From Candidatus Nomurabacteria bacterium (GTDB lineage: Bacteria; Patescibacteriota; Minisyncoccia; Phycocordibacterales; UBA9973): 41,718 bases of DNA. The position numbers were made by a program, and so were the translations under genes. Of this stretch, positions 10,572-34,900 are shown in pieces. How positions within the stretch are numbered: position 1 is the stretch's first letter; every line of letters begins with the position of its first letter. The DNA is taken from the NCBI GenBank assembly GCA_023898605.1, contig CP060230.1, forward strand, positions 197,944 to 239,661, written 5' to 3'. Below the pieces are notes generated by a model. That model had not been told where the DNA came from and did not search any database. It was given only the letters and a program-made list of their open reading frames with translations.

Positions 10572-10600
10572 TTTTTGAACTTAAAAATTAAGCCAGAAAA

Positions 10601-10609: not shown

Positions 10610-10615
10610 TTCAAT

Positions 10616-10928: not shown

Positions 10929-11021
10929 ATACTTTCCACGCAAAAATGAGTGGAAAGTGGATTTTTTAACAAAAAACAATCGAGAGAGATAATAACATTT
11001 TATAACTATTTTTCAAGAGTA

Positions 11022-13948: not shown

Positions 13949-13950
13949 AA

Positions 13951-18533: not shown

Positions 18534-18788
18534 TTATGAATCTAAAGAAACTTTTCTAAAGAAAGAAAGTAGTACGAAGGTTAGTATTACGAAAAAAGTA
18601 TGGAACGCCATCATATGCATAAATCCAGAACTAGTAGCAAAAACACTATCTAGATATATAGCTGGAAGTAGCCCTACCAAAGGATGAGCCCCGAAATAGA
18701 TAAAAAACACAAATAAAACAAGTGTCATCCATATAGGCAAAGACATGGCGCTTCCAAGCAAAAATATCGCTGAAATAACGGATATCAT
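18534..18788 (-). CDS. Small polytopic membrane protein (possibly a short MreD-like protein)
   Basis: Three hydrophobic helices in 84 aa. It lies directly upstream of the PBP2 gene, 3 nt away. The MreD idea is positional only. Confidence 0.35.
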   Translation of the reverse strand: MISVISAIFLLGSAMSLPIWMTLVLFVFFIYFGAHPLVGLLPAIYLDSVFATSSGFMHMMAFHTFFVILTFVLLSFFRKVSLDS

Positions 18789-18855
18789 GTACCTAGTATA
18801 TCATGAGGGGGAGGCAGTTTTCAACTCCTATAAATATGTGACCCTAAAAAACGAA

Positions 18856-19272
18856 TTAAGGCAATCTACGCCTAAAAATAGAGCTAAAAATCATATAGAT
18901 AGCAAAAACTAGGAAACCGTAACAGATTATAGCTATCTTGAAAAAGTAATAGAGCCCAGTAAAAAGAAACTGGAGGATCTTTTCTTTTGTTATTTTGTCA
19001 TCTTCTACTGGAACCTCTTCAGAGTCAGGATCTTCTGGAACATCTATCTTTGCAAAAAAGAAATCTCTATAACTTTTTCTTTTTGTTTCAGCATATTCAT
19101 ATATACCGACAAAGAAGTTACTTACACCTTCTGGTATATGGTCTTTTACAAAATTAGAAAGATTCTCTGTGTTTTTTAGGACTTCTTCTGTGCTATTTTT
19201 TTCTTGTGCAAATCCAAAGTTTGGCAAAAATATTGTGAGTGCCAAAAATAATATAAATACTTTTTTCATCAT
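18856..19272 (-). CDS. Secreted/membrane-anchored hypothetical protein (last gene of the surface operon)
   Basis: Signal peptide 'MMKKVFILFLALTIFLPNFGFAQE' and a C-terminal hydrophobic region 'YYFFKIAIICYGFLVFAIYMIF'. Its ATG overlaps the stop of the upstream gene (ATGA at 19269-19272). Confidence 0.5.
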   Translation of the reverse strand: MMKKVFILFLALTIFLPNFGFAQEKNSTEEVLKNTENLSNFVKDHIPEGVSNFFVGIYEYAETKRKSYRDFFFAKIDVPEDPDSEEVPVEDDKITKEKILQFLFTGLYYFFKIAIICYGFLVFAIYMIFSSIFRRRLP

Positions 19273-20990
19273 ATCTTGTTTTCTATATCACCTATTTCGT
19301 TTCCTATTTCTACCTCTGCTTGATCAAGATCTTCTTGGAAATCTTCTAGGAATTCTTTTTCTCTTTTTCCATCAAGACTATTTGATCTAGATGCTACTTC
19401 TAATTCTGTATCTACCCGCTCTCCTAGTGCGTCAAATTTCTCTTCGTTTTTCTTCTCAGCTTCTTTTGCTTCTCTGAATATAAGTGTCCTGTATTTCTGG
19501 AATGAGCGCAGAAGTATCACAAACAAGAATCCGATTATGATTATGACTATAAGTAGCAGTATAAGTGGGATTAGGTACTTGATTATGCTTCTTACAAACA
19601 TAACAAACTTACCAGCCAGAACCTCTACACTTATTTCAGGTAAGTATGAGCTCTCTGCTCCGTTTTCTAGGACAGTTTTTACTCTAAGCGTATATTTACC
19701 ACTAGCCCAGTTAACACTTGTATTTAGACTAAATCTTCCAGTTTCAGAAACCTCTACTTTTAGAAGTAAGTCTGCGCCACTCCTTTTTGGTCTAGCCAAG
19801 AAAGAGTTGAATAGGCCGCCAGACTGACTAACAGCCTCTATATATACAAAGCTTCCAGGTACACCAGAACCAGAAATAAAGAATTCACCTGTAGAAGGTA
19901 TTTCTTGGGTGTACTTGTCTACAGTTGGAAGTGGAACTTTTTCAATCGTTACATAAGCTCCATTTGAAGAATAGTTCCCAGCCTTATCTACTGCTTGTAC
20001 AAAAACAAGTTTTTTACCTGGAGAAACTACAGGAGAGATATAGTCTTCTTCTCCTTCTTTCTTCCAAACAAACGGCTCACTTCCACCGATGCTTATAGTG
20101 TAATAATCAACACCAGAAGTATCGTCGCTAGCTTCTATGAACGCGTGTAGTGTCGAGTCTTGGTAACCTGGTTTTTCTATAACAGAAACAGCGTTTGGTG
20201 GAGTCGTATCTACTCCTATCCTAAAGTGTGATATATCTCCCCATCCAGAAGAGTTTCGCAATCTAACGTGTGCATACCACTCACCATCTGTAAGATCAGT
20301 TTTTGAGTAATTTGTAACAAGTCCTTTTGAAGAAGTTCCCGGATCACCTACGGGGTTTTTATCGACACTATAAGAAACTCCTGTAATTGTGTCGTCTATA
20401 CCCCAAGAAATCGCTACATCTCCACTCTGATACCATGCAAACGGATTTGGGTGTGTAGAAGAAGAAATAATTGGCGGCAAAGGAGAAGAACTTGATCCAG
20501 CTGGAGTAGTTGCAACCGGCACACCTTCGCCTATGGTAAAACTTGCTGTTGGCAATGTTCCAGAAAGAACGTTTGAACCCAATCCATCGTTTGCCAAAAT
20601 CGCAGCTCCAGTTATAGAAAGGTTGGCAACGGCGGAAGCCTTGGGAGAAAAGTTTATCGTTAGGATTTTACCAGAAGAACCTTGATAACCAGGATTTACA
20701 ACCAACCCTTCAAAAACTACAGTTGAACCGTCGACTTTTGGACTAACAGTCCAGAAATTAACAATAGAAGAAGAAATAGAAACAGAAGAAACATTCAAGT
20801 AAGAACTAGGAAAATTTATCTTGCCAGAGAAGGCATTGATAGCCTCGGATGGACTATTTACATAGAGACTTACAGAAAAACTCTGCCCTATCTTATAAGC
20901 ACCAGAAGAAGGAGAAAAAGTGAAATTTGCCCCAAAGGAAGTAAGTGGAAAAAAGAGTAGTATCAAAAATATGGCTCTCCTCAGCATCAT
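19269..20990 (-). CDS. Membrane-anchored surface protein with an N-terminal cohesin-like domain, Ig-like domains, a C-terminal TM and a coiled-coil tail
   Basis: Signal peptide. 'FTFSPSSGAYKIGQSFSVSLYVNSPSEAINAFSGKINFPSSYLNVSSV' is a cohesin-like beta-sandwich start. 'DTTPPNAV...DDTSGVDYY...VDKAGN' is Ig-like. TM is 'LIPLILLLIVIIIIGFLFVILL', followed by an acidic tail. Confidence 0.6.
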   Translation of the reverse strand: MMLRRAIFLILLFFPLTSFGANFTFSPSSGAYKIGQSFSVSLYVNSPSEAINAFSGKINFPSSYLNVSSVSISSSIVNFWTVSPKVDGSTVVFEGLVVNPGYQGSSGKILTINFSPKASAVANLSITGAAILANDGLGSNVLSGTLPTASFTIGEGVPVATTPAGSSSSPLPPIISSSTHPNPFAWYQSGDVAISWGIDDTITGVSYSVDKNPVGDPGTSSKGLVTNYSKTDLTDGEWYAHVRLRNSSGWGDISHFRIGVDTTPPNAVSVIEKPGYQDSTLHAFIEASDDTSGVDYYTISIGGSEPFVWKKEGEEDYISPVVSPGKKLVFVQAVDKAGNYSSNGAYVTIEKVPLPTVDKYTQEIPSTGEFFISGSGVPGSFVYIEAVSQSGGLFNSFLARPKRSGADLLLKVEVSETGRFSLNTSVNWASGKYTLRVKTVLENGAESSYLPEISVEVLAGKFVMFVRSIIKYLIPLILLLIVIIIIGFLFVILLRSFQKYRTLIFREAKEAEKKNEEKFDALGERVDTELEVASRSNSLDGKREKEFLEDFQEDLDQAEVEIGNEIGDIENKI

Positions 20991-21004
20991 ACAAGAATTA
21001 TAAC

Positions 21005-21910
21005 TTATTTATTGTCTTTTTGTCTCTTTATTTTCCCTACAAAGTAGAAGAAAAGTAGAAGTAGTACAAAGATAAGTAGATATGTATATCTAATATCCAA
21101 TCCAGAAATAACAGCTGTGGTTATATTGCCAGCATTGTCTACCGCTCTAACTCTAATCCTAGATTTGAGTGATTGATCCTCTAGTAAATATGGACTTTTT
21201 GCTCTAACCCATGGGCCCTTGCCCTCTTTGACTTCATAATACGCGATGCCTGTTTCTTTGTCTGTGGTTTCAAATATAAGGAAGTATCTTCCATCAAATG
21301 CGTTTGGACTGTTGGTTATTATCGAAGAAAATGCTTCTGGTCCACGAGTGTCTATTATAATGCTGCTCATTTTTTGTCCTCCTACTTCTGAAACAGCAAA
21401 AGAAAATGAATCACTAGAAGTTTTTAGTTTTGTACCGAGACCGTCATTTTTGTAAACTTCAGCTTTTGATATATCGATTGTACCGGAACCTTCTCTTAGT
21501 GGTTTAAAAACGATTCGGAAAAGTTGTCCTGGTTTTTTAGTGTTTGTTATAGGATCGATTGTTCCAGAAAAACCTCCGGCCATGATTCCAGAAAACTGGA
21601 TACTAGATCCAGAAATATTTGGAGATTCAACCCAACCAGTCGCAACAGTAAGTCCGTTGTATATATCGACAACTTCTACTAAATCTTCTGGAAAAGTAAG
21701 CTCTCCTAGAAATGCATTTATTTCTTCTCCTTCACCGTCAACAAAAATATCTAGGTAGAAGTTTTTGTCTGGAGAAAGTATGGCGGGAGTTTCTGTTCCA
21801 AAACTTATAGACGCGGCATTTGCAAAAAACATTGGTATAGCCAACAAAGCTAAACTCACAGAAAATATTATATTTTTTGTAATTTTATATTTCATATTTA
21901 ACCAGTCCAA
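21005..21910 (-). CDS. Membrane-anchored surface protein with a cohesin-like domain, an Ig-like domain and a C-terminal TM
   Basis: Signal peptide. 'FYLDIFVDGEGEEINAFLGELTFPEDLVEVVDI' is cohesin-like. 'DTRGPEAF...DKETGIAYY...VDNAGN' parallels the 573-aa neighbour. TM is 'YLLIFVLLLLFFYFVG'. Confidence 0.6.
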   Translation of the reverse strand: MDWLNMKYKITKNIIFSVSLALLAIPMFFANAASISFGTETPAILSPDKNFYLDIFVDGEGEEINAFLGELTFPEDLVEVVDIYNGLTVATGWVESPNISGSSIQFSGIMAGGFSGTIDPITNTKKPGQLFRIVFKPLREGSGTIDISKAEVYKNDGLGTKLKTSSDSFSFAVSEVGGQKMSSIIIDTRGPEAFSSIITNSPNAFDGRYFLIFETTDKETGIAYYEVKEGKGPWVRAKSPYLLEDQSLKSRIRVRAVDNAGNITTAVISGLDIRYTYLLIFVLLLLFFYFVGKIKRQKDNK

Positions 21911-22836
21911 TAATAAGCAAGTATCGAGAAGTCTACGATTGTAACGATGCCGTCACCAGAAAAGTCTACGTTGCTAGGTGGAGACGGTCTGTAATACCAG
22001 TATGCGAGTATAGAAAAGTCTATAAGGTTTATACGACAGTCTCCGTTAAGGTCATATATACTTCCACAAGTTGGGTAAGCTTGATTTTCACTACCAACGT
22101 TGAAAAGTATACTTTTAGAATATGAAGTTGCTTCACCTGTCAAAAATGCTTGAGACTGTGCGGTATGAGAACCTATTTCAAGAACTGCACTAGAGAATGT
22201 ATAAAGGTATATTCCGTTTTCATCACTTGCTGTATTGAAAAAATGCGGAACTTCTGAGTTTACGTTTATCAAAACTTCAGCATCTGGTGCAGTTTCTCCA
22301 AAAACAGACACCGTGTCTCCACGTTTAACGCTTATCTTATCTAGCGCAATAGTGGGAGCAATAAATATCCCAGATATATAAGTAGTAACACCGCTTGTTA
22401 TATAAAGTGGAAATGTAAATGGCGTAGATCTTCTACCGTCGCTATCTTCTGCCAAAACAGAAAAAGTATAAGTACCAGTTGTCAGGTTTCCTACAAACAC
22501 TGAGAAAAGTGCGTCTGGTCCAGCAATAGTCTGCACTACTTCTTCACCATCCTTGAGGATTATTATAGTTGAAAGCGGATATGCTCTACCGGAAAAACTA
22601 ACTCCGGTTGGAGAAAAACCTCCACCACTACCTCCGCTTCCGCCACCTCCTCCACCTCCGCCACCTCCTCCTGGAGTTGTTGCACCGACAGTGGCACTTA
22701 TACTGACCACGTCAGCAAAAAGTGAACTTGGAAGTGTCACGACAAGTGAAAACATAAACAAAAAAAACGAAGAAACAATAATTATGTCTTGATTCTTCGT
22801 TTTTTTATTGGTTTTGTTTTGTTTTTTAGAAAACAT
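21898..22836 (-). CDS. Secreted protein with a poly-Gly linker, two Ig/CarboxypepD_reg-like domains and a C-terminal dockerin
   Basis: Two dockerin Ca-binding repeats at the C-terminus: 'DLNGDCRINLIDFSILAYWY' and 'DFSGDGIVTIVDFSILAYYW' (DNA about 21901-22065). There is also a 'GGGGGGGGGGGSGGSGGG' linker and a signal/anchor helix. Confidence 0.7.
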   Translation of the reverse strand: MFSKKQNKTNKKTKNQDIIIVSSFFLFMFSLVVTLPSSLFADVVSISATVGATTPGGGGGGGGGGGSGGSGGGFSPTGVSFSGRAYPLSTIIILKDGEEVVQTIAGPDALFSVFVGNLTTGTYTFSVLAEDSDGRRSTPFTFPLYITSGVTTYISGIFIAPTIALDKISVKRGDTVSVFGETAPDAEVLINVNSEVPHFFNTASDENGIYLYTFSSAVLEIGSHTAQSQAFLTGEATSYSKSILFNVGSENQAYPTCGSIYDLNGDCRINLIDFSILAYWYYRPSPPSNVDFSGDGIVTIVDFSILAYYWTG

Positions 22837-22841
22837 CTGGA

Positions 22842-23888
22842 TTATCCAGCTTGGTTTTCACCTTCTGGACCCTGATGATGAGACTCTTCTTCTATTTCTT
22901 TTCTGATCTCTTCTTTCATTTCTTTGATAAGCATGTCCTTGTGTCTTCTAGTTAGTCTCTTGTATAGGAAGCTTAGTATAAACAAAGACACAATTACAAC
23001 TATAAGTAGTTGCCATGGTATAATCCAAAATCCAAACTTTGCATTACTTTCTAGAGAATTATCTCCACCGTAAGTAAGTGATAGCTTAGCGTTGTAGTAT
23101 CCAAAAGCAAAGTTTCTCCATTGATTCTTTACGTTCTGCCAGAAATTCATGTTTTCTGTTTCGGTGGAAAGTCCATTTTTACTTTGCCAAGAAACTTCAA
23201 ACTTTCTGATTTGAGAAGGCAGAACGTTTCCGTCAACTATGTTTGCTGGAATTATAGCTTTTGTAAAACCAAACATGTGCTTTATTGTCACATCTCCTTC
23301 TGGTTTTATTCTGTCGTTACCACCATTTTGGAATCTATAGAACATGTCTACAGGTAGTGATGTAAAGAATTTCTTACCATCTGTACTAGAAAATTCTACT
23401 ATTCCTCCGGCTTCATCTATCTCTCCATTTACTCTCAGAAGAACAAGTGTACCAACTTTGGCACCGATAGAAACTTGGCCTGTACCTGTGCTTGGTGGTT
23501 CATTGCTCCAAAAGATCGCAGCAAAATATCCTCCTGGATCTGCTGATTCTGGGACAGCTATAGTTACAGGAACAGTCTTGGACTCATTTGGATTAAGAAT
23601 AACTTCTTGTGTTGTATATATCCAAGTAGCAAGGCCCTCTCCTCCACTAGTAAAGCTTGGTGTTCCACTTTCTCCTAGTGCTTCGAAGTTTTCAAACGAA
23701 ACGTAAAAAGTTTTTGTTACTGTTTGGTCGTTGTAGAGTTTTAGTTCAGTATTTACTGTTTCTCCTGGATCTGCAGAAACCTCTATTCTTACAGGAGAAA
23801 GTGTCAGAGCGTCAGCAGTTCTAACTTGAAACAAAAACAGAGCAAAAATCGCAAAAAAAGCTGTGCTAATTACTCTAATTTTTGACAT
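22842..23888 (-). CDS. Signal peptide + beta-rich ectodomain + C-terminal TM anchor protein (DUF916/DUF3324-like architecture)
   Basis: 'ALTLSPVRIEVSADPGETVNTELKLYNDQTVTKTFYVS', 'ESKTVPVTIAVPESADPGGYFAAIFWS', C-terminal TM 'IIPWQLLIVVIVSLFILSFLY' and a charged tail. The family call rests on architecture and remembered motifs only. Confidence 0.45.
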   Translation of the reverse strand: MSKIRVISTAFFAIFALFLFQVRTADALTLSPVRIEVSADPGETVNTELKLYNDQTVTKTFYVSFENFEALGESGTPSFTSGGEGLATWIYTTQEVILNPNESKTVPVTIAVPESADPGGYFAAIFWSNEPPSTGTGQVSIGAKVGTLVLLRVNGEIDEAGGIVEFSSTDGKKFFTSLPVDMFYRFQNGGNDRIKPEGDVTIKHMFGFTKAIIPANIVDGNVLPSQIRKFEVSWQSKNGLSTETENMNFWQNVKNQWRNFAFGYYNAKLSLTYGGDNSLESNAKFGFWIIPWQLLIVVIVSLFILSFLYKRLTRRHKDMLIKEMKEEIRKEIEEESHHQGPEGENQAG

Positions 23889-23914
23889 AAATAAATCCTC
23901 TAAAAATTAACTTT

Positions 23915-25006
23915 CTAATAAGCAGCTGTTGCTATATAAGTAACATCTGTTGAATATGATCCAGCTTCAGTAAGTGAAGAAATGTTAGCTAGATATGATA
24001 CGCTGAGTGTCTCTGTTGCTGTAGGACCAGTTTCTGAAACTATTTCTGTTGCTGTAGATGCGACAAATGCAAAATCTGGGGTGGCATCTCTCTGATATCC
24101 TGATGCAATCGTAGCGTCACCATCAGTTGAGACAGAAAGTCCAAACTCTTCTGTTCCCGGGGTACCATCACCATCACCTGTTACAGATGCAACATCTATA
24201 GTATTAGCACCACTTGTAAGTGTTGCGCCATTATATGTTATCGAATATCCAGAAGAAGCATTTGTACCAACTGTCATAGTGTGCGCTGCTGTAGGAGTTG
24301 TTTCAGATGCATCGGTACCGTTTGTGTCACCTGTTGCCCATCTACCGGTAGATGCACTAAGAGTACCAAAACCGACTGTTGTATCGTCTACTGTAAATGT
24401 TATAGAAGGGTCAACTGTAGCTGTGATATTTACTGAGTCGTCAGCAATAATATCGATAGCAGCTGTACCAGAGTCTCCAAATGTTCCACCGATTGTTATA
24501 GAGTGATCGTTTCCAGCTACACCATTTGATATTTGGTTCGCACCAGTACCAGAAGATGTAGCATTTGTACCAACTTCTATCCTTACACACCTTGCTGCAG
24601 TTACAGTGTCTGTACCAGAAGTTATGGTTATAGTCTGACTGGCAATTGAAACACCCCATGTTGTACCAGAAGCAGATGCGGCTGTAGTCTTTTCTGTGTA
24701 ACCGGCTGTAGTACAAGTACCTGAGTCTCCTTCTGCAAAGTCAACGTCATCTTCTACAATAGAACCAAGTCCTGTGAAGTCTGAGTCAAATGTAACCGTT
24801 ATAGTCTCACCTGCTGCAACTCCAGACGGTGTAACAAAGTATATTGTGTGATTTGCTGCAGTAGATGCAGTAAGAGTAGAAAGAACATCTCTAAGAGAAG
24901 TTACAGATGCCGCGATAAGCATCTCTGGTCGAAGGAGTAATGCTCCAAACGCCATGACAACTACAAGGTATGAACCTAGTATTTTTGTTAAAAATTTTTT
25001 ATTCAT
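23915..25006 (-). CDS. Secreted Thr/Ser/Gly-rich protein sharing its C-terminal ~170-aa domain with the giant protein
   Basis: Signal peptide 'LGSYLVVVMAFGALLL'. The C-terminal 'ITFTVDDTTVGFGTLSA..RWATGD..ASSGYSITYNG..TEEFGLSVSTDG..TIASGY..YSTDVTYIATAAY' aligns by eye with the end of the 2547-aa protein. Confidence 0.6.
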   Translation of the reverse strand: MNKKFLTKILGSYLVVVMAFGALLLRPEMLIAASVTSLRDVLSTLTASTAANHTIYFVTPSGVAAGETITVTFDSDFTGLGSIVEDDVDFAEGDSGTCTTAGYTEKTTAASASGTTWGVSIASQTITITSGTDTVTAARCVRIEVGTNATSSGTGANQISNGVAGNDHSITIGGTFGDSGTAAIDIIADDSVNITATVDPSITFTVDDTTVGFGTLSASTGRWATGDTNGTDASETTPTAAHTMTVGTNASSGYSITYNGATLTSGANTIDVASVTGDGDGTPGTEEFGLSVSTDGDATIASGYQRDATPDFAFVASTATEIVSETGPTATETLSVSYLANISSLTEAGSYSTDVTYIATAAY

Positions 25007-25093
25007 TTTATGTGTTTTTTAACTTATAAGTTTTATACCCTTATATTATAATACTTATCCTTCTTACCTTCAAGACTTTTCCACAATAGAGTC

Positions 25094-28000
25094 TTAGAAA
25101 TTACCTGTAACTATATAAGTTACATCTGTAGAATAGTTATCTCCTGACACAGTAAGTGAATTTATGTTGGCTATATAATAAGCCGATATAGTCTCTGTAC
25201 TAGAGACTGCCGATGTTTTAGAGACTATTTCAGTCAAAGTATTGGCTACCCAGCTCCAATCACGGCTTGCAGGAGTAGCGTTGTGATCATACCCAGAAGC
25301 AATCGTACTAGATCCATCTGTAGAAAGCCCCAAACCAAACGCCTCTGTAACACCAGGGTCTCCATCCGCATCGTTTGTTATAGAAGCGGCATCTATATCA
25401 TCCGTACCACTCTTGAGTAAATCTCCAAAATATGTGAGTGAGTACCCAGAGGAAGCTGATGTTTGTATAGTAAATGTATGAGCTGCAACGTCAGAAGATG
25501 AACCACTCAAATCTCCAGTTGCCCACCTTGCATTTAGGATTGTAAGTGGACCAAATCCTATAGTTGTGTCAGATATCGAGAATGTAAGTGACGCATCAAA
25601 CCAACAAGAGTCGTTGTTACCACTGTTGGTAGAGTTTGTTGGGGACATCTGTATAGCTGTACCCTCACAACCTCCGTCTTGAACATCGGCATAATCAACA
25701 CTCGCTGTACCTGTCGGGTTGAAGTTGAACTGTGTACCGCCAGAGGTAGACCTTATAGTTATAAGGTTTCCACTACTACCTGTTACGGTAAATGTACCTG
25801 TTACCGTGTATATTGCACTACCTGTTATAGAAAAGTTGACTTGTTTTGCAGCAGTATGAGTAAGCGTGAGGTCATAGAAAGAAGTTGTACCAGAAATAGT
25901 TGCAGTGTTTGCCCCATTAAAAACGAGAGAAGAAGTATCTGCTGAAAAAGTTCCAGCATTACTAAAGTCTCCAGTTATCGTAATAGTTGATCCGTTGGCA
26001 GTAAATGTTCCAGCTTGTATATCTATAGAACCGACATCGAGGTCATAAGTATCATCAAAAGTGTTGAATCCACTTCCTCCCTGCATTGTAAGTGTTCCGT
26101 TTATAGTAGTAGATTGCTCCATCGCTTTTGTTGCACTAACAGAACTTATAAGAACATTGTAGTAAGTATAAGTACCAAGACCCTGATTTACGTTTGCATC
26201 AAAATCTACTGTCGAATCAGTATTGAGTGTTACTGTTTCGAAACTAGAATAGTTACTATCTAACGCGCCTGGTCCACTTTGGTCCACTTTGATTGTTGCA
26301 GCGTTTACAGTAAGTGTATTTGTACCAGAACCTGTTATGGTATTACCGTCAGGATCAACCGTTCCAGCCGAGACTGTAAAATTGTTTGTTATACCCGTAG
26401 TCGCTGCGAGTGTTTTTGTTCCAGAACCATTTACAACAAGGTCATAAAAACTTGTTGTGTTTGAGTCTGTTATAAAGACATCTCCGGCGCCTGTAAGTTC
26501 TACACTAGAAGTTCCCGCAGAAAAAGTTGCTGATGAACCTCTTGTAAAAACAGTTCCGCTTGTGGCAGTAAGATATATTGTAGATGCGTTTGCAACAAAT
26601 ATAGCACTACCAGCGTTAGTTATTTCAAGTTTACCGGTAGATAGCGTATAGTCGGAATCAGTGCTCAATGTGCCATTCAAAACATTTGTAGTACCTGCCG
26701 CATTTACAGTAGTTGTCCCTGTTAGTACATATGTTTCAGATGCGTTGCTTACAGAAAGATTGTAGTAGTTTACAGAACTAGCAATAGAAGTGTTTCCTCC
26801 TCCATTATTTCCCGTGTATATAACAGTAGAAGTTCCTTCGTTAAAAGTACCAGAGTTTGTAAGCGGTGTTCCATCTGTTCCTGTAAGAGTAAGAGTTATC
26901 GAGCCAAGTGTTATTGTGCCAGATGCACCAATATCAAGGTCAGCAACCGTCAAATCAAAACTTGGAGTAAATGTTCCAGCTGTAAGAGTAAGTGTAGAAT
27001 CAAAAGTAGATGAATCCGCAAGTGCCCAACCTCCACCAGATCCGTTGAATGTAACATTGTCGAAGTTTTCTCCACCATCTGTAATAACATGACCTGTTGC
27101 AGTCGCAGTAAACGTAGTTGTCTGTGAACTAGAGTAACTAAACGTACCTTCGTTTGTAAAATCTCCTCCAACAGAAAGTGCATTGGTTCCCATCGAAAGT
27201 GTTCCTGTCCCGTCTATATGAATATCTCCATCTTTCGAAGAAGACGATGAAGAAGGTGAAGTGGTTACAGTACCACCAGGTGTAAATGTTGAACCGTCCA
27301 ATATATGTAGCTCTACTCCGTCTTCTACAGTCAGAGTATCTGGAGAAGAGTCAACCGCATCATAAAGCATGTTTGTATCGTCTGTAGTACTGTCATAATC
27401 TACAAGATCAAGTATTGTGGCCGGACCTGCATTCTTGTGACCAACTACAACAGTGTCATAATAAAGATCCATTCCCACATCACCACTACCACTTGAAACA
27501 TACACAAGGTTGGCTTTGTTGGTACCCGTAGTATATATGCTTATGGTATCTCCAGCAGAAACTGTTACTGAAGAAAAAGTATATGTACCGTCGGAACTAG
27601 AGCAGGTTGTAGTTTGAGCTGTTCCACCGTTTACTCTAAGTGATACGTTTGCGGTAGTTCCGTCACAGTCACCACCGTTCCCAGTTGTTGCGGCTGTAGA
27701 TTCGTCAGATTTATAAACAGTCCCTGAGACACCAGATCCAGCACTAATCGTAACAGAAGGATATGAACAAGTAGAAGAAAGACAATCTGTAGTACCACTA
27801 GCTTGATATCGCCATACTGGTGTAACCATATCTACATCATATGCTCGGAAATAATATGTAGCAGAAGTAACATTCTCGGCTTTTAGTGGATAATCATACT
27901 CTGTTATAGCAAGACCAGTGTTGTCCATGTTACTTCCTGCTGTAGCATCCTTGTCAGATATGTATGCACCAGTTTCTGTAGAACCGGTAAGATTACTTGT

Positions 28001-31000
28001 GGCGATAGCAGTATTGTCAGAACAAGATCCACAAGTCTCACCGCTTGTAGCATAACGCCACACCGCACTTGTCTCACCTGTATCACCTACATCGGTCCAT
28101 GTTGCAGTAAGTGAATCTGGATCGTCAGTGGTCCATTGAAGCTTCTTACGTAAATCCGCACCATCCAAACTACCAGTTTCAACAAACTGATATCTTAGTC
28201 TTATAAAATCTTCTGCTGCCACTCCAGTAGCGGTAGCGTTTTCTGCCGCTATACCAGTAGATGGAGTGTTGGAAGTATAGTCACTGTAGAACCTCCAGTT
28301 TCTTCCCCATGGAGAATAAAACTTCCAAGCAAAATCATATGGATAAGAAGCTCCAGCAGGATCAGTACCTGGAGCATTATTATTTGGGCAAGCTACTCCA
28401 TAGTTTGTAAGATTTGTTTCGAGGTCAGCGTTGGCGGTAGAAAGCCCAGCACCAGTCCAAAGCTGAGCATACAAATCACAGTCCACGTCAGAAACAGCAA
28501 TCATTATGTCATCTGCATTTGGTGATCCCCAAGCTTTTACGTTTAGGGCGTCGTCAGATGTTGTAATACCTGTTCTGGTTTTTGACCCCCATGTACCTGA
28601 TGGGGTAAATGTAAAGTAGTTGTTTGTTCTAGTTGTGCCCGCGTCGTTGTAAACATGTAAACCCTCTCCGTTGAATCTTTCAAACGCAGTATACGCCTGC
28701 ATACTAACAACTGTTTCTGTTGCAGTGTCAGGACAGTCTGTCACGGCACACACAGTCCAACCATCAGTAGAATCATCTCCTCTCCACACAGCAGAACGGG
28801 TATCGTTACCTTGGGCTGAAGTTGTAACTAGAACTCTCGAACTTGTAGGGTCGGCTTTGGAAACTACCCATTGTCCGTTGGAGCTAGTAGAATATGCGGT
28901 ACTTTCGCCACTCCAACCAGTATCTACGTTGTAAGTTCTGTATTTTATAGCACCAGTTGTAGAGTCAGCATATGAAAGAACGAAGTTGTCTGTAAACTGC
29001 CAGTTACCATCAAAACACATTGCAAACTGACAAGCTACTGCCATAAGAGTTTCTATTGTAGTACCCGAATCCCAAGATGATCCATCCCAATAATATGCAA
29101 ACAAGTCTCTGTTTGCGTCTATAACCAAAAGCATCATTCTATCGGCTCTTTCTGACGCAAGATTATATCCGGAAGCAACCAATCTTATACCCCAAATAGC
29201 ACCGGCCGAACCGGGAAGATCTATTTCGTTTGTTGCACTAGGTGTACCTGGTGAAGAATCTGGTGACCAAGATGATCCATCCCAAAGTGCATAGTACACT
29301 TTGTCTGATACGTTATCAGAATATGCAACCATCGCTCTTCCTGAAAGAGCTTCGTAAGCTATATCAAAAGTTCTAAGACAAAAGCTTCCTGTTCCTGGAG
29401 TGTTACATGTTTGGGTGGCGGAGGTACCTGGGTTATTCCATTGTGCTGTATAGTCACCATTGGCATCACAACCTGTAGTACATGTTTCTACATAGAGTGA
29501 TCCGTCAACTTTAAGTGTTCCTATCATGATCTCTTCTCTGACTGGAGATGTATCTGCTATAACCCACTGAACATAACTCGTGTTTGAGGTTGCTCCGTTT
29601 ATCTCTGTTGCAAATGTGCTCGGGTTTGTAAAAACTCTTGCTCGGAGCACTCCCTGACTCGAGGCATTTGTATCGCCGTAATACATAACACCATTGTTGG
29701 CCACTGCGTCAGAGGCTATCTGCCAGTATCTTCCCTCTTCGAAGAAAACCTCTTCACCAAACCGGAAACTAAGCGGACCTATCAAAAATAGTTCTGGTGA
29801 GATAAGTGGTGCCTTGAACCTATAACTTATAGTTGCAGTTTCTCCTGCGGTTAGAGACAGGCTCCATCTTATTTCTTTCTCTCCAAGGTTTTCTATTATG
29901 TTGTTATAAGGTATACCTTGAGAACCTTTTCTTATATCAAAACTTAGCGGGACTCTTTCTATAACTGTTCCACTCCAGTCTTCTGTTGCAGTAACTTTGA
30001 GAGTGACAGAATATTCTGCTTTCGGGTTTATTCTAGTAGGAGCAATTCTTTCTACATCGAACACTACTCCTTCATCTACCATAAATGAATCTTTGACTGT
30101 TTTTTGCCCATTGGCTGTTATTGCAGAAAGTGTAGTTTTGTATTCTCCTTCGATTGTTGTATCGAAATATGCGTAGTAGTCTGGAACACTTATTATGTTG
30201 TCAGGACCACACTCTTCTTCTCTTGTTATTGTTCCGTTGTCTGTAGACAGCGTTGAGATATTTCCGTCTGGATCTGTAACATACATGGTTAGATCAGCAT
30301 CACAAACAGTTCTACCTCCATCATCCAAAACTCCCATTTGTATATAAGAAGTCATGCCAGGGTAGTACACTGATCTGTCGAAGTTCACCGCCAAAACTCC
30401 CCAACTAAAATCTTTCTGAGTTGTAACTTTTGCTTGTGGTGTATCGACAGAAACTTCTATTGTGTATCTTCCTGGTTTGAAATCTCTCTGGTTTTTATCT
30501 ACAACGATTTGAGTTTTTTCTATTCCTTCATAGAGAACTTTTTTAAAACTATAAGAAAGATCTACCATGTCTCCATACGGGTCAAATATAACTACACTTA
30601 TATCTTCTGGTTGCTCAATATCCTCTAGGAAAACTACGTCTTCTTCTCCTGCAAATAGATAGTTTAGTGGACTTTCTATCTGAACTGTTTCTGGAACATA
30701 TACATCTTCTTCTACAATTTCTTCTTCTGTAGTGTCGGTTGTTTCTATAACTTCTTCTGTAGTAGTTGCGGTATCTGGAAGTTCTATAACTTCAGGAGTT
30801 GGTTCCTCGGCAACTTCTTCAGGCAGAGTAGTTTCTTCAACTACTGGTTCTGGTTCTGGAGTTGGTTCAGGTGCAGGAATTTCTTCTTGTGCTTTTACCA
30901 CTCTTGTTATTCTCTTCCAGAAAGAAACTGTTTCTTCTGGGACTGGTTCTGGTGTTGGTTCTTCTTCGATAACTGGTTCAGGTTCTGGAGTAGGAGTTTC

Positions 31001-32737
31001 TTCAACTACTGGTTCTTCTGGAGCGACTGGAGTTTCTTCGATTGTGTCGGGCTGTGATATTTCTTCTACCACTTCCTCTGTTGGAGTTTGTTCAACTGTA
31101 CCCTGACTTTCTTCTAGAGTTTGCTGGTCCGCTCCATCGCTTTTTTCTATTATGTCTTTTGCTTTGTTTATTATCTGTTCGGTTTTTTGTTCTAGTTTTT
31201 GGTTCAAAACATTTTGGTCTTTTTCTTCTAGACTTTTTACAACTTCACCCAAGAGCCCGTGTTTATCTTCTAGAACATCGGCTTGTTGTTTTGAAACCAA
31301 GTCTCTCGCGTCTTCGATTGTCAAAAGTGGTTCGCTTATGATAAAGCTTGGACTTTGGTTTAGTGTGAAGTCTTGGTCTACTTCAACTATATCTTGTGGG
31401 TCTTTGATGAAAACTTCTGGAGCGTCGTCAATAGGCAGAAGTGTATCGTACTCTACATCGATAGACATACCATCTAGGAAGAAGTCCATGTTACTGTCTA
31501 TGTTTGCAAGTGGTACAACTCTTATCTGTATGTTATCTATATTCTCCCACTTTCTGATCAGACTCTTGTCTACTTCAAAAGAAGGATTTGGTAGTGAGTC
31601 ATAAGTCACAACACCGACTTCTTGCCAGTTGAATCCGTCGAGTGAAAGGAAAACTTTCAAGTACGGAGTCGATGTGTCTTTTGCGTTTTTTGTCTTTACT
31701 GTTTTTTTAGAAGACTTTGAAGCCGGTGTAGTTTCTTCTACGACTTCCTCACTTTCGGAATCTGTAATCTCTTCCGAGTTTTGTTCTTCAATTGTCTCAG
31801 CGGTCTCAATGATCGTCTCTTCTACGACTTCCTCAGTCACTTCTTCCGGTGCAGTAGTTTCTTCAACTACTGGTTCAGATTCTGGAGCTGGTTCAGGTTC
31901 TGGAGCTGGTTCTGGTGTTTCTTCTTGTGCTCTAACTACTCTTGTTATTCTCTTCCAGAAAGAAACTGTTTCTTCTGGAGTTGATTCTGATGCTGGTGTT
32001 TCTTCGATGGCTGGTTCAGGTTCTGGAGTAGGAGTTTCTTCAACTGCTGGTTCTTCTGGAGAAACTGGAGTTTCTTCAGTTGTATTGGTTTCTACGACTT
32101 CTTCTTTCTTTTCTGGTATTTCATTTATACTTCCACCTCCTTCTAGAATATCGTCAACGCTAGGTGCTAGTGCGTCTTCTATGTTTTGTTCTTCGTTTTC
32201 AATTTCTTCTTTTTCTACTTTAGTTGGACCGGTGTCTCTTATCTTGCCTTCTGGGAAAGCATAGAGACTCAAGTTCAAACTAAACTTTTCTGGAACTTTT
32301 TCATTTGGAATATCTCCACCGAAGTTACCACAATAAATATCTCCAGTAGAGTTTGCGAGTATTGCGGAGTATGAAGCGATTTCAGAATTCTTGGACGGCT
32401 CTTGAGGCGCTCCTTCTGCCCGGTCAGCATATTTCCAACTACCCAAACAATCTCCAGGGTAAAATGTTGCAATAGTTGCTCTACTTCTAAACGAGAAGAA
32501 TGAACCACTCAAAATAGCGATAAGCATAACGGCGATGCTTATAAATCTTGTGTGAGGATGGTTCCTAAATGCCTGCCAATCTATCTTGATTATGGGTACT
32601 CTTTTTCTAAGAGAAAGGATTTTCTTTGCTGGATCAATAAAAAGACCCCCGACTTCATCTCGGTATACAGGCCTTTTTTTATTTACTTTTTTTCTCTTTT
32701 TGCGGAAATTTAACATGAAAAATATGTCGAATCCCAA
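25094..32737 (-). CDS. Giant (2547-aa) N-terminally anchored cell-surface protein
   Basis: Uninterrupted 7.6-kb ORF (TTG 32737, with an alternative ATG at 32716). Basic N-terminus plus one TM (FISIAVMLIAILSGSFFSF). Two copies of an acidic Pro/Glu/Thr module. Ig-like middle region. Repeated W-containing Asp-box-like motifs (WDGSSW x2, DTGW, STDGW, SGTW). Long Thr/Gly/Ser-rich repeat region. Shared C-terminal domain. Confidence 0.85.
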   Translation of the reverse strand: MGFDIFFMLNFRKKRKKVNKKRPVYRDEVGGLFIDPAKKILSLRKRVPIIKIDWQAFRNHPHTRFISIAVMLIAILSGSFFSFRSRATIATFYPGDCLGSWKYADRAEGAPQEPSKNSEIASYSAILANSTGDIYCGNFGGDIPNEKVPEKFSLNLSLYAFPEGKIRDTGPTKVEKEEIENEEQNIEDALAPSVDDILEGGGSINEIPEKKEEVVETNTTEETPVSPEEPAVEETPTPEPEPAIEETPASESTPEETVSFWKRITRVVRAQEETPEPAPEPEPAPESEPVVEETTAPEEVTEEVVEETIIETAETIEEQNSEEITDSESEEVVEETTPASKSSKKTVKTKNAKDTSTPYLKVFLSLDGFNWQEVGVVTYDSLPNPSFEVDKSLIRKWENIDNIQIRVVPLANIDSNMDFFLDGMSIDVEYDTLLPIDDAPEVFIKDPQDIVEVDQDFTLNQSPSFIISEPLLTIEDARDLVSKQQADVLEDKHGLLGEVVKSLEEKDQNVLNQKLEQKTEQIINKAKDIIEKSDGADQQTLEESQGTVEQTPTEEVVEEISQPDTIEETPVAPEEPVVEETPTPEPEPVIEEEPTPEPVPEETVSFWKRITRVVKAQEEIPAPEPTPEPEPVVEETTLPEEVAEEPTPEVIELPDTATTTEEVIETTDTTEEEIVEEDVYVPETVQIESPLNYLFAGEEDVVFLEDIEQPEDISVVIFDPYGDMVDLSYSFKKVLYEGIEKTQIVVDKNQRDFKPGRYTIEVSVDTPQAKVTTQKDFSWGVLAVNFDRSVYYPGMTSYIQMGVLDDGGRTVCDADLTMYVTDPDGNISTLSTDNGTITREEECGPDNIISVPDYYAYFDTTIEGEYKTTLSAITANGQKTVKDSFMVDEGVVFDVERIAPTRINPKAEYSVTLKVTATEDWSGTVIERVPLSFDIRKGSQGIPYNNIIENLGEKEIRWSLSLTAGETATISYRFKAPLISPELFLIGPLSFRFGEEVFFEEGRYWQIASDAVANNGVMYYGDTNASSQGVLRARVFTNPSTFATEINGATSNTSYVQWVIADTSPVREEIMIGTLKVDGSLYVETCTTGCDANGDYTAQWNNPGTSATQTCNTPGTGSFCLRTFDIAYEALSGRAMVAYSDNVSDKVYYALWDGSSWSPDSSPGTPSATNEIDLPGSAGAIWGIRLVASGYNLASERADRMMLLVIDANRDLFAYYWDGSSWDSGTTIETLMAVACQFAMCFDGNWQFTDNFVLSYADSTTGAIKYRTYNVDTGWSGESTAYSTSSNGQWVVSKADPTSSRVLVTTSAQGNDTRSAVWRGDDSTDGWTVCAVTDCPDTATETVVSMQAYTAFERFNGEGLHVYNDAGTTRTNNYFTFTPSGTWGSKTRTGITTSDDALNVKAWGSPNADDIMIAVSDVDCDLYAQLWTGAGLSTANADLETNLTNYGVACPNNNAPGTDPAGASYPYDFAWKFYSPWGRNWRFYSDYTSNTPSTGIAAENATATGVAAEDFIRLRYQFVETGSLDGADLRKKLQWTTDDPDSLTATWTDVGDTGETSAVWRYATSGETCGSCSDNTAIATSNLTGSTETGAYISDKDATAGSNMDNTGLAITEYDYPLKAENVTSATYYFRAYDVDMVTPVWRYQASGTTDCLSSTCSYPSVTISAGSGVSGTVYKSDESTAATTGNGGDCDGTTANVSLRVNGGTAQTTTCSSSDGTYTFSSVTVSAGDTISIYTTGTNKANLVYVSSGSGDVGMDLYYDTVVVGHKNAGPATILDLVDYDSTTDDTNMLYDAVDSSPDTLTVEDGVELHILDGSTFTPGGTVTTSPSSSSSSKDGDIHIDGTGTLSMGTNALSVGGDFTNEGTFSYSSSQTTTFTATATGHVITDGGENFDNVTFNGSGGGWALADSSTFDSTLTLTAGTFTPSFDLTVADLDIGASGTITLGSITLTLTGTDGTPLTNSGTFNEGTSTVIYTGNNGGGNTSIASSVNYYNLSVSNASETYVLTGTTTVNAAGTTNVLNGTLSTDSDYTLSTGKLEITNAGSAIFVANASTIYLTATSGTVFTRGSSATFSAGTSSVELTGAGDVFITDSNTTSFYDLVVNGSGTKTLAATTGITNNFTVSAGTVDPDGNTITGSGTNTLTVNAATIKVDQSGPGALDSNYSSFETVTLNTDSTVDFDANVNQGLGTYTYYNVLISSVSATKAMEQSTTINGTLTMQGGSGFNTFDDTYDLDVGSIDIQAGTFTANGSTITITGDFSNAGTFSADTSSLVFNGANTATISGTTSFYDLTLTHTAAKQVNFSITGSAIYTVTGTFTVTGSSGNLITIRSTSGGTQFNFNPTGTASVDYADVQDGGCEGTAIQMSPTNSTNSGNNDSCWFDASLTFSISDTTIGFGPLTILNARWATGDLSGSSSDVAAHTFTIQTSASSGYSLTYFGDLLKSGTDDIDAASITNDADGDPGVTEAFGLGLSTDGSSTIASGYDHNATPASRDWSWVANTLTEIVSKTSAVSSTETISAYYIANINSLTVSGDNYSTDVTYIVTGNF
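30837..31039 (-). repeat. Intragenic repeat copy B (acidic PE/T-rich module containing ETVSFWKRITRVVKAQEE)
   Basis: Nucleotide-level similarity to 31853-32077 read directly. One shared run is ctcttgttattctcttccagaaagaaactgtttcttctgg. Confidence 0.85.
31853..32077 (-). repeat. Intragenic repeat copy A (acidic PE/T-rich module containing ETVSFWKRITRVVRAQEE)
   Basis: See copy B. The copies lie ~1 kb apart in the same gene. Confidence 0.85.
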
Positions 32738-32881: not shown

Positions 32882-33649
32882 CTATTTAATTAATTTATCT
32901 TTTGTAACTCTAGGTATTAACAAGAATGTTTTAGATTTTCTGTTATAGGACTTTATTTCTCTTGCCTTTATGTGAGTATTTCTTTCTAGAAACTCGTTGA
33001 ATGATTTGTACTCCCCAGTTCCTTTTATATCCATATCGTATAACTTCCAATCATCTAAACAAACAATAGCTGGTTCCGTTATCATTGGAACCAAGAAATC
33101 AAGGACAGTTTTTGAAGAACTATAAGTGTCACAGTCAATAAAAATAATTCCAATATTTCCTATGTCGTGTCTCTGTATTATTTCATCATTAAGAGTTTCG
33201 TTATACCAACCCTTTATCCAAGTTACTTCATCAGGATTCACATCTCTTCTTTTTAGACAATCCTGCATCTTCTCAAAAGAGCATACATAAAAACCTTTTT
33301 GTAAAACATCGTGCTCTTCATCAGTTCCTGATGGTAGTCCTTGAAATGAGTCAAACCCAAAAAATCTCATATTGTTCAAACCCAACTTTTTTGCCGTCAA
33401 ATATGCACTCCCTAAAGAAGAACCGTTAAAAACACCAAACTCAAAGTAATCCCCGATGTCCTCACCTTTTATTGCTTGTAATCTTTTAATGCAACTCTCA
33501 AAGAAAATTTTTAAGGTTTCTGGTGGAACAAGGTTTATTTTGCAAATATCATCAATGTGTCCTTTTGTCCAAGGTGAACCAGGAACAGGATTGAACTTTC
33601 TATACAATTTTTTTAAAGCCCTCGTCAGCTTTGAATATCTATAACTCAT
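32882..33649 (-). CDS. Class I SAM-dependent methyltransferase, TylF/MycF-like (Methyltransf_24-type)
   Basis: 'YFEFGVFNGSSLGSAY', 'FFGFDSFQGLP' and 'IIFIDCDTYSSSKTVLDFL' resemble macrocin-O-methyltransferase-family motifs. The likely start is ATG 33649 (MSYRYSKL). Confidence 0.65.
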   Translation of the reverse strand: MSYRYSKLTRALKKLYRKFNPVPGSPWTKGHIDDICKINLVPPETLKIFFESCIKRLQAIKGEDIGDYFEFGVFNGSSLGSAYLTAKKLGLNNMRFFGFDSFQGLPSGTDEEHDVLQKGFYVCSFEKMQDCLKRRDVNPDEVTWIKGWYNETLNDEIIQRHDIGNIGIIFIDCDTYSSSKTVLDFLVPMITEPAIVCLDDWKLYDMDIKGTGEYKSFNEFLERNTHIKAREIKSYNRKSKTFLLIPRVTKDKLIK

Positions 33650-33731
33650 ATTCAGTATAATATGACAAAAAGTTCTACCTTCCAAGACACCTGCTTGAAA
33701 ATATATTGAAAAACAAAGCTAAAATAATTTG

Positions 33732-33942: not shown

Positions 33943-33969
33943 AAAAAGCCGGTGTAACCCACCGGCTTT
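33943..33969 (-). terminator. Rho-independent terminator of the sigma-factor gene
   Basis: Minus strand: aagccggtg-ggtta-caccggctt followed by ttttt. It overlaps the stop at 33968. Confidence 0.7.
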
Positions 33970-34846
33970 ACTGTGCAAGAAACTTTTTTAGAAGATCGCT
34001 TCGACCACGAATCCTTAGTCTCGTAATGGCGTTGTCTTTGATCTGACGCACCCTTTCTTTAGTGACTCCAATACTATCCCCAATCTCATCAAAATAATAA
34101 GATCTTGAAAAGCCTATCCCGAAAAACATTTTTAGGACAGTTTTTTCTCTTTCAGTAAGCACCGAAAGAACGTTTTCAACTTCGGCAGAAAGAGACTCTG
34201 TATAATCAACTTCTCTATCTGGAGGAGGAGAATTGTCAGCAACGAGTTCGCCAAGTTCTGAAGCGTCTGGATTTGACTCGTCAACGGTAGCATTTAGTGA
34301 AACGGACTTGAGAGAAACACTCATGGTCAGCTTGATTTCTTCAAGTCCCAAACCAACCATGGCATCTTCCAACTCTTCCATTGTCGGCTCACGCTCATAT
34401 CTTTGTTCCAATTCACTGAAAGCCTTGTTGATTTTGGAAATATTGCCGACCTTATTGAGTGGCAATCTCACAATCCTTGAATTTTCTGCCAAAGCTTGGG
34501 TTATTGCCTGCCTGATCCACCAAACAGCGTAAGAGATAAACTTGAAACCTTTGGTTTCGTCAAATTTCCACGCGGCCCTAGTAAGACCAATGTTTCCCTC
34601 GTTGATAAGATCGTTGAGAGAAAATCCAGCATGTTGGTATTGTTTTGCAACAGAAACAACAAACCGAAGATTTGCTTTGGCCAACCTTTCGACAGCTTCA
34701 GGATCTTTATTTTCCCTGATACGTTTTGCAAGCTCAACCTCTTCTTCTGGTGTAAGTAGATCGATTCTTGAAATCTCTTGAAGGTATTTCTCAAGAGACT
34801 CACTTTCTCGATTGGTGATCTTTTTTGTTATTTTCAATTGTCTCAT
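33968..34846 (-). CDS. rpoD: RNA polymerase sigma-70 family factor (RpoD/SigA-like, short form)
   Basis: Region 2 'DLINEGNIGLTRAAWKFDETKGFKFISYAVWWIRQAI', region 3, and region 4 'IGDSIGVTKERVRQIKDNAITRLR'. The likely start is ATG 34846 (MRQLKITKK). Confidence 0.85.
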   Translation of the reverse strand: MRQLKITKKITNRESESLEKYLQEISRIDLLTPEEEVELAKRIRENKDPEAVERLAKANLRFVVSVAKQYQHAGFSLNDLINEGNIGLTRAAWKFDETKGFKFISYAVWWIRQAITQALAENSRIVRLPLNKVGNISKINKAFSELEQRYEREPTMEELEDAMVGLGLEEIKLTMSVSLKSVSLNATVDESNPDASELGELVADNSPPPDREVDYTESLSAEVENVLSVLTEREKTVLKMFFGIGFSRSYYFDEIGDSIGVTKERVRQIKDNAITRLRIRGRSDLLKKFLAQ

Positions 34847-34900
34847 GAGGAACTGTTTATTTACTAAAAATTTAATATCAAAAGGCACAAAAGTCAAATA

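Follow-up and report, generated by a model that had tools for sequence, protein, structure and literature searches.

The stretch of DNA considered here, called the window, comprises 41,718 nucleotides (nt) of the genome of a Candidatus Nomurabacteria bacterium (GenBank assembly GCA_023898605.1, contig CP060230.1, positions 197,944 to 239,661 of the forward strand), and the subject is a run of seven minus-strand genes at window positions 18856-32737 that is very probably a Pam-type pilus locus of Paceibacteria, which belong to the candidate phyla radiation (CPR). In order of transcription the genes encode a giant protein (25094-32737; 2547 amino acids (aa) from a TTG at 32737, with an alternative ATG at 32716), a pilin (23915-25006; 363 aa), a chaperone (22842-23888; 348 aa), a dockerin protein (21898-22836; 312 aa), a first cohesin-like protein (21005-21910; 301 aa from a TTG or 296 aa from an ATG at 21895), a second cohesin-like protein (19269-20990; 573 aa) and a small anchored protein whose role and membership are doubtful (18856-19272; 138 aa). 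A check of the window's open reading frames (ORFs) confirmed the coordinates of all seven, which had been given in an earlier interpretation made by a model from the letters without database searches (the sequence-only reading), and the spacings follow from them: successive genes are separated by 87, 26 and 5 nt, then overlap by 13 nt, stand 14 nt apart and overlap by 4 nt. With the ATG at 21895 as the start of the 301-aa gene, a 2-nt gap replaces the 13-nt overlap; that gene is called as 284 or 296 aa in other assemblies, and start codons are uncertain. Identical proteins occur in the same operon in four public assemblies, including GCA_020428735.1.

A hydropathy scan gave each of the seven products one N-terminal hydrophobic segment and placed a C-terminal membrane-spanning segment in the 348, 301, 573 and 138 aa proteins, in agreement with the earlier statement that all are exported or anchored and that four have C-terminal anchors. 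The absences reported at that time were also borne out: no enzyme family in Pfam or NCBIfam is matched by any of the seven, none contains an LPXTG motif (searched as LP.TG), and a scan of neighbouring genes turned up no sortase family.

The 363-aa protein matches NF058581 ('Pam pilus system pilin subunit') of NCBIfam with 81.2 bits against a cutoff of 55. The first description of the Pam pilus dates from 2026 and concerns a single cultured Saccharibacterium, Candidatus Mycosynbacter amalyticus (Saccharimonadia); cryo-electron microscopy (cryo-EM) of its filaments identified a pair of pilins, PamA and PamB (Troman et al., bioRxiv 10.64898/2026.03.03.709456). According to this preprint the pili are usher-less, the incomplete C-terminal immunoglobulin-like (Ig-like) domain of one subunit is completed by a strand from the next, and the donated linker is the most conserved part of the pilin. 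Further products of the Pam operon are PamC and PamD, which are FimC/PapD-like chaperones with a transmembrane helix at the C-terminus, a tip protein, PamT, that consists of the C-terminal domain (CTD) only, and PamR, an RbmA-like transmembrane terminator with an N-terminal strand that is proposed to fix the fibre to the cell directly; Saccharimonadia and Microgenomatia are listed as the main carriers.

The window pilin has the parts expected from this description, namely a signal peptide, an N-terminal beta-sandwich, a linker and the C-terminal Pam pilin domain. Its AlphaFold2 model, built on 33 homologues, has a mean confidence score (pLDDT) of 91.6 and shows one beta domain at residues 33-185 and another at 202-361, with an unstructured linker at 186-201 between them. 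The family to which it belongs has 1096 clusters in the protein database, all of them unnamed, and every named source is a CPR organism. Comparison of the pilin profile with sequences in the PDB gave nothing relevant, no Pam structure being detectable there, and single-sequence PDB searches with the pilin, chaperone, 301-aa and giant proteins gave chance-level matches only.

The same domain ends the giant protein (25097-25627, minus strand), where it is proposed to be a donor-strand acceptor. The last 177 residues of the giant protein are 54% identical to pilin residues 193-363 (E 7e-49); its last 300 residues, scanned alone, score 57.0 bits with NF058581 against the cutoff of 55, a match confined to the isolated C-terminus and not reported for the full-length protein. 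The sequence-only reading was thus right that a small and a giant protein have a common C-terminal domain. Its identification of the domain as WxL fails: PF13731 has no match at E values up to 1 in the window proteins and none at E values up to 10 in the 33 pilin homologues, and NF058581 is found instead. The equivalog model for PamT, NF058579, reaches at best 28.5 bits against a cutoff of 240, covering the shared C-terminal domain only, and the window has no CTD-only gene. Since the shared domain is a Pam pilin domain, a polymerising pilus, with the 363-aa protein as fibre subunit, is more likely than the self-assembling static scaffold displaying a giant adhesin that had been proposed earlier; a conserved attachment-type apparatus remains from that proposal, and what it missed is that the apparatus is most likely a pilus that polymerises.

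Ahead of its Pam domain the giant protein consists of an N-terminal hydrophobic segment, linkers rich in Pro, Glu and Thr, and a long Thr/Gly-rich repetitive region. The hydrophobic segment, RFISIAVMLIAILSGSFFSFRS (32483-32548, minus strand; hydropathy scan and translation), is a candidate signal anchor or long signal peptide, with cleavage possible at SRA/T just after it. The 5′ part of the gene contains a 232-nt direct duplication, 30836-31067 and 31874-32105, whose copies are 81% identical and 1038 nt apart; it encodes Pro/Glu/Thr-rich linkers, each with the odd element ETVSFWKRITRVV(R/K)AQEE.

In the 348-aa protein a signal peptide is followed by two Ig-like domains and, at the C-terminus, a transmembrane helix. 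In its AlphaFold2 model (pLDDT 84.3), where the C-terminal helix spans residues 292-337, it folds as a membrane-anchored two-Ig chaperone with an architecture like that of WxLIP, PamC and PamD. The top Foldseek matches of this model are the Enterococcus faecium WxLIP chains 9i1y_A and 9i25_C (E about 5e-12), the former being WxLIP free and the latter WxLIP bound to a long WxL protein. The chaperone-usher chaperones CfaA, CsuC, Caf1M and FimC come next, all near E 1e-11 to 1e-7, and RbmA is also among the matches, with a lower TM-score. At the level of sequence the family profile has a sole match in the PDB, EfmWxLIP1, at E 0.16. The earlier description of this protein as DUF916-like is therefore half upheld: WxLIP heads the structural matches, but PF06030 (DUF916) is sub-threshold on the protein itself at 17.0 bits against a cutoff of 27.3 and weak in 9 of 33 homologues (best E 1.6e-4), and PF11797 (DUF3324) is undetected on it. 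The family has 808 clusters in the protein database, and all named sources are again CPR. Structure prediction, suggested earlier as a check, has in this way been carried through for the chaperone and the pilin, giving a two-Ig chaperone and a Pam-like pilin architecture.

These matches bring in an alternative in which nothing polymerises. In Firmicute WxL/Csc clusters, CscA/WxLIP has the layout DUF916-DUF3324-transmembrane helix, and CscB and CscC are small and large WxL proteins (PMC10599100, PMC1534035). By analogy, the locus might make a static surface complex in which the anchored two-Ig protein holds the giant and small proteins, the cohesin-dockerin contacts serving as scaffolding. The 348-aa protein has its best structural matches in WxLIP, both on its own and in complex with a long WxL protein, and its only PDB match by sequence is likewise WxLIP, the PF06030 traces in the homologues point the same way, and the small and giant pair with a common C-terminal domain mirrors CscB/CscC. 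An unstructured hairpin loop of WxLIP is, moreover, predicted to become a strand that completes the WxL sandwich (PMC10599100). Set against these points, PF13731 gives no signal in the window proteins or the pilin homologues, no LPXTG protein is present, and the domain that the small and giant proteins have in common is that of a pilin whose relatives form filaments solved by cryo-EM. The conserved linker strand of the pilin, which has the pattern of the chaperone strand, also argues against a static complex, because a subunit needs a donor strand only if subunits bind each other. The static complex is accordingly judged unlikely.

The pattern in question, [VIL]-x-[VIL]-x-A-x-[VIL], in practice of V-x-I-x-A-x-V type, occurs once each in four of the window proteins and is absent from the cohesin-like proteins and the 138-aa protein. 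In the pilin it is VNITATV, residues 192-198 of the linker (24413-24433, minus strand), a proposed donor strand that is coil in the monomer model. The linker stretch D-D-x-V-x-I-T-A-T-V is the most conserved of the pilin, with V192, A196, T197 and V198 invariant or nearly so across the 33 homologues. In the chaperone it is VSIGAKV, residues 139-145 (23454-23474, minus strand), in a conserved loop that is proposed to fill the groove of the pilin temporarily; residues 131-140 have a pLDDT of 57, and among 33 homologues V139 is kept in 27, I141 in 25, G142 in 30, A143 in 29 and K144 in 30. In the dockerin protein it is VSISATV, residues 44-50 (22687-22707, minus strand), directly after the signal peptide and ahead of a poly-glycine spacer, so placed at the mature N-terminus and a further proposed donor strand; of 60 dockerin orthologues, 55 have the strict motif close to the N-terminus.

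The distribution of the motif among Pam-domain proteins of relatives separates the small from the large. It precedes the C-terminal domain in 62 of 87 small ones, many of the others having near variants, and is absent from all of about 38 large ones. The giant protein of the window has its sole occurrence inside the N-terminal membrane segment, and an alignment shows unrelated sequence at the motif position in it and in two large relatives.

Downstream of the chaperone gene, the 312-aa protein has a signal peptide, the VSISATV strand, a poly-Gly linker, Ig-like domains (Big_6) and a C-terminal dockerin. That it is a dockerin protein, as was read from the letters, is substantiated by PF00404 (type I dockerin), which matches it in two stretches at 26.6 bits against the Pfam cutoff of 22.9. 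The module lies at 21916-22056 (minus strand), and two calcium-loop repeats, DLNGDCRINLID and DFSGDGIVTIVD, are visible in its translation. Among the related loci (numbered L001 and upwards), the orthologues in L005 and L007 pass Pfam, and the L006 dockerin is a precomputed Pfam match. In a subset of dockerin orthologues the poly-Gly spacer is replaced by a cysteine-rich module (CG.G......GE.CDG...L.G..C...GF..G.L.C); the loci concerned are L014, L015, L017, L023, L040, L046, L048, L068, L070, L073, L077, L082 and L087.

The two anchored proteins that follow have paralogous N-domains. In the 301-aa protein this domain (21386-21814, minus strand) is followed by a small beta domain and the C-terminal transmembrane helix, and there is a weak match to an OmpL47-type domain in NCBIfam; in the 573-aa protein it lies at 20526-20930 (minus strand) and is followed by Ig-like domains (Big_13) and a transmembrane helix, beyond which lies a charged tail in the cytoplasm. 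Homologues 42-47% identical to the cohesin-like N-domain, and 44-47% identical where the 573-aa protein is the reference, carry PF00963 (cohesin), which is matched by 3 of 10 related domains (best E 1.5e-7) and reaches 17.2 bits against a cutoff of 24.1 in the L006 orthologue. A two-sequence cohesin profile found only 8 database homologues and was then enlarged with operon orthologues. Two profiles built from the family, A3 and A6, have no PDB matches other than cohesins of Ruminococcus flavefaciens (E 0.0012-0.015), the value of 0.0012 belonging to A6. On these sequence comparisons both N-domains are probably cohesin-like, and the dockerin may dock on them.

Conservation was assessed in GTDB species representatives, of which 279 genomes have a relative of the chaperone; counts come from 80 loci that were fetched and compared by tblastn with the window proteins, and denominators are informative loci. 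A Pam-domain gene ends at most 400 nt upstream of the chaperone gene in 64 of 73, two such genes being the usual state (32 of 44), and dockerin and cohesin-like genes lie downstream of it in 57 of 65. The order pilin-chaperone-dockerin-cohesin recurs in 57 of 65 species-level genomes. Dockerin and cohesin-like genes come together: both are present in 57 loci, each one alone in a single locus and neither in 6 (Fisher p = 5.8e-7), which gives indirect support to the idea that the two modules bind each other in a calcium-dependent way. The gene tables of three distant relatives (L005-L007) have the same order, their pilins also match NF058581, and the large proteins encoded upstream of the pilin gene in L005 (1055 aa) and L007 (1338 aa) both end in that domain. 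The records of relatives include Paceibacterota, Nomura-, Staskawicz-, Magasanik- and Falkowbacteria, and close homologues are labelled Candidatus Paceibacterota. The expectation of synteny in relatives is borne out for six genes only. For the 138-aa gene tblastn gave nothing in the 80 loci, and its product has no family match, so the conserved unit is of six genes and not seven. Many contigs with the operon bear the title 'uncultured Gammaproteobacteria', or else 'Pseudomonadales' or 'Candidatus Saccharibacteria' (L012, L029, L030, L035, L038 and others), titles that are probably submitter mislabels of Paceibacteria genomes.

Two unrelated systems could in principle be neighbours here, a Pam pilus made of the giant protein, pilin and chaperone and, beside it, a cohesin-dockerin module for surface display. 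Cohesin and dockerin are unmentioned in the Pam preprint, no literature was found that ties them to CPR pili, and some related loci have pilin and chaperone genes without dockerin or cohesin genes. The arrangement speaks for one system nevertheless, with only 5 nt between the chaperone and dockerin genes, an overlap between the dockerin and 301-aa genes, the recurrence of the order in 57 of 65 species-level loci and the pilin-type motif in 55 of 60 dockerin orthologues. Further, where the dockerin and cohesin genes are missing, a replacement is found: in L026 and L040 the gene after the chaperone gene encodes a protein laid out like PamR, with the same motif at the N-terminus and a membrane helix of its own at the C-terminus. 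A pair of unrelated neighbours is therefore a rather improbable explanation.

Other relatives vary the arrangement. The pilins of L036 (8504-9079 and 9318-9899), of 191-193 aa, have only a signal peptide, a VNISATV or VSITATV strand and the C-terminal domain, and a 2750-aa protein is encoded there downstream of the chaperone gene and not upstream. L078 has, at 9947-14153, three chaperone paralogues (348, 329 and 339 aa) with an extra Pam-domain protein between, a set reminiscent of PamC and PamD in Mycosynbacter. Pam-domain proteins of a third class, of about 316-358 aa, are encoded just upstream of the main pilin in L034, L038, L040, L047, L051, L063 and L072; they contain cysteine and a conserved '...TNAH.G....Y..K.CA' stretch, have no donor motif and may be minor subunits or tip adaptors. 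None is encoded in the window.

As a whole, a Pam-type pilus operon with the following mechanism of assembly is likely to be the best explanation of the locus. All parts would cross the membrane via Sec, and the membrane-tethered chaperone would use its VSIGAKV strand to cap the groove that is open in new subunits. The giant protein would be incorporated first and become a distal tip adhesin, because it has an acceptor domain and lacks a donor strand. Pilins, which have both the VNITATV donor and an acceptor domain and are for that reason assigned to the shaft, would polymerise beneath the tip. The dockerin protein has a donor strand, VSISATV, and no acceptor domain, so it would end growth, acting as terminator and base adaptor. 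Its dockerin would bind the cohesin modules of the two membrane-anchored proteins, fixing the fibre to the cell, and the role of PamR would be split between a soluble terminator and membrane anchors. The specific order of tip, shaft and base together with cohesin-dockerin docking, which is inferred from the parts, has somewhat better than even chances of being right. Use of the operon for attachment is plausible, as is the earlier suggestion of attachment by a reduced-genome organism, the host being a CPR bacterium of the Paceibacteria.

Several points weigh against this interpretation. The evidence for a pilus here consists of genes and predicted structures. A motif so short can be expected by chance in about one in three proteins of such a length, and for this reason its weight lies in position and in conservation in three unrelated families of one operon. 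The hydrophobic segment of the giant protein comes after some 60 residues and might stay uncleaved, which would be at odds with a free tip. Foldseek with the whole pilin model returned generic two-Ig adhesins only (SdrE and ClfA, TM about 0.2), and neither a WxL chain nor Pap or Fim pilins. For the chaperone, the relation to PamC and PamD is one of architecture, and NCBIfam has no model for it (nor does it for the dockerin and cohesin-like proteins). As for the base, the Pfam scan gave no PF00963 match for the window proteins, so that the earlier naming of two cohesin-like proteins is supported by homologues and profiles without being called directly, and the best PDB profile E value for these domains is a modest 0.0012.

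The likeness to the Pam pilus comprises a pilin C-terminal domain of the same family, above cutoff, a two-domain pilin layout, a conserved linker strand, a membrane-anchored two-Ig chaperone in the operon, Sec-dependent parts, restriction to CPR, and the lack of usher, sortase and ATPase. The differences lie in the host, which belongs to Paceibacteria, in the presence of one chaperone and not two, and at the two ends of the fibre. In place of a CTD-only PamT the 2547-aa protein carries the acceptor domain, and in place of a single PamR-like transmembrane terminator there are a dockerin-ended protein and two anchored cohesin-like proteins; no single protein of the window has, in the manner of PamR, both a donor motif at its N-terminus and a membrane helix at its C-terminus. 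New with respect to the Pam preprint are thus the giant tip protein, the probable cohesin-dockerin base and the Paceibacteria form.

With the chaperone-usher pili of Gram-negative bacteria (Pap, Fim, CFA/I, Csu and Caf1) the operon has in common the chaperone fold and the logic of donor-strand complementation and exchange. There too a tip adhesin such as FimH or PapG couples a receptor-binding part to an acceptor-only pilin domain, and a donor-only or terminator subunit ends growth. The window chaperone differs in being tethered by a transmembrane helix, there is no outer membrane, and no sequence similarity is detectable; no usher or other large beta-barrel family was matched in the operon or its flanks. 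The donor strand of the window pilin is an internal linker whereas that of chaperone-usher pilins is an N-terminal extension, but the minimal pilins of L036 have it in the N-terminal position, the classical layout.

Resemblance to WxL/Csc systems extends to an anchored two-Ig protein, the best structural match of the window chaperone, to small and very large secreted proteins with a common C-terminal domain, and to the predicted completion of that domain's unfinished sandwich by a strand from a loop of the anchored protein. Unlike the window operon, these systems include an LPXTG (CscD-type) protein and have the WxL (PF13731) sequence to which nothing in the window corresponds, with PF06030 sub-threshold and PF11797 undetected; they are described as peptidoglycan-bound complexes and not as fibres, and without cohesin or dockerin. 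The Pam preprint does not mention WxL or DUF916, 'chaperone' and 'pilus' are absent from the WxLIP paper (PMC10599100), and neither draws a link among Pam, WxL/Csc and chaperone-usher systems. The window chaperone connects the Pam and WxL systems structurally, and the earlier analogy with Csc goes beyond a chance likeness of architecture. Common ancestry is nevertheless a hypothesis and not a result, because there is no sequence match between the Pam C-terminal domain and the WxL domain. Two readings linked to each other, that the cohesin-dockerin contact is the pilus base in most Paceibacteria and that Pam, WxL/Csc and chaperone-usher systems are branches of one ancient system, are put forward tentatively, their chances falling a little short of even. 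In such an ancient system the strand of a chaperone would complete an incomplete Ig-like domain, and the tethered usher-less form would be its single-membrane version. The structural match to WxLIP hints that WxL/Csc clusters, which in lactic acid bacteria and enterococci are poorly understood, may work by the same strand-completion chemistry.

Compared with known cohesin-dockerin assemblies, both cellulosomes and non-cellulosomal pairs, the operon has a type I dockerin with two calcium-loop repeats beside cohesin-like proteins, and at least one partner is cell-anchored; it differs in having no attached enzymes, in a transmembrane helix where those use an S-layer homology (SLH) domain or sortase, and in its proposed cargo, the base of a pilus. 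Dockerin and cohesin-like modules, and surface proteins with Ig-like domains, might also suggest a cellulosome-like complex for the degradation of polysaccharides, or else a pilus of either the sortase-dependent Gram-positive or the type IV kind. Taken together these three are hardly credible. The seven proteins include no glycoside hydrolase or other enzyme family, and the cellulosome was rejected for this lack of enzymes. A sortase pilus was rejected for want of an LPXTG motif in these proteins and of a sortase gene among the annotated neighbours in the window, and a type IV pilus because the proteins have no prepilin-like N-termini and neither pilus ATPase nor platform genes lie beside the operon.

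A large part of bacterial diversity belongs to CPR bacteria, which are apparently attached to other cells, by means that are mostly unexplained. At least 279 species-level genomes, from Paceibacteria and groups allied to them, have a conserved relative of the operon, with proteins that are still labelled hypothetical. If the proposal holds, the order of assembly can be read from sequence, with an acceptor-only giant tip, a donor-plus-acceptor shaft and a donor-only base, and the giant, variable tip proteins would be natural candidates for determinants of host recognition. A cohesin-dockerin contact at the base of a fibre would be a new use of that module, this pilus being then the first known to use it, and would represent a natural 'split PamR'.

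With regard to expression, an extended -10 element, TGcTATAAT (TGCTATAAT), noticed earlier upstream of the giant gene, is present at 32764-32756 (minus strand), and by its consensus match is a candidate operon promoter. In the 87-nt gap ahead of the pilin gene a promoter-like site, TTGAAG-17-TATAAT, at 25045-25073 (minus strand) has 10 of 12 matches to consensus and is possibly an internal promoter for the major subunit. A weak terminator-like hairpin, a pattern match at about 18849-18873 (minus strand), overlaps the 3′ end of the last gene, and another promoter-like site (18824-18795) stands ahead of an 84-aa ORF, the next gene, which is followed by PBP2. Such sites are suggestive only, because the class is not enriched over shuffles: 33 were found in all and 34.6 were expected in shuffled sequence.

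One flank of the operon holds genes for PBP2, GreA, LysRS, MraZ, MraW and an FtsI-type penicillin-binding protein, and the other holds genes for a TylF-like methyltransferase, sigma-70 and DnaX. Base composition is even across the window, and an origin from a mobile element or phage was rejected in view of the housekeeping flanks and the even GC content. The TylF-like O-methyltransferase gene (32882-33685, minus strand) is immediately upstream of the operon, and the sigma-70 gene is at 33968-34897; an unidentified modification on a PamA serine is reported in the Pam preprint. The 84-aa ORF (18534-18788, minus strand) has no family match; it is placed immediately upstream of PBP2 and is part of the PBP2 unit, not of the pilus operon. 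For it, tblastn at E 1e-5 gave no match in the 80 loci, but a similar-sized gene is at its position in L001 and L007. PBP2 was found nearby in 9 of the 80 loci. In L006 (15140-20999) ATP synthase genes come directly after the pilus operon, the same neighbourhood as in the Pam preprint, their place in the window being taken by PBP2, GreA, LysRS and MraZ.

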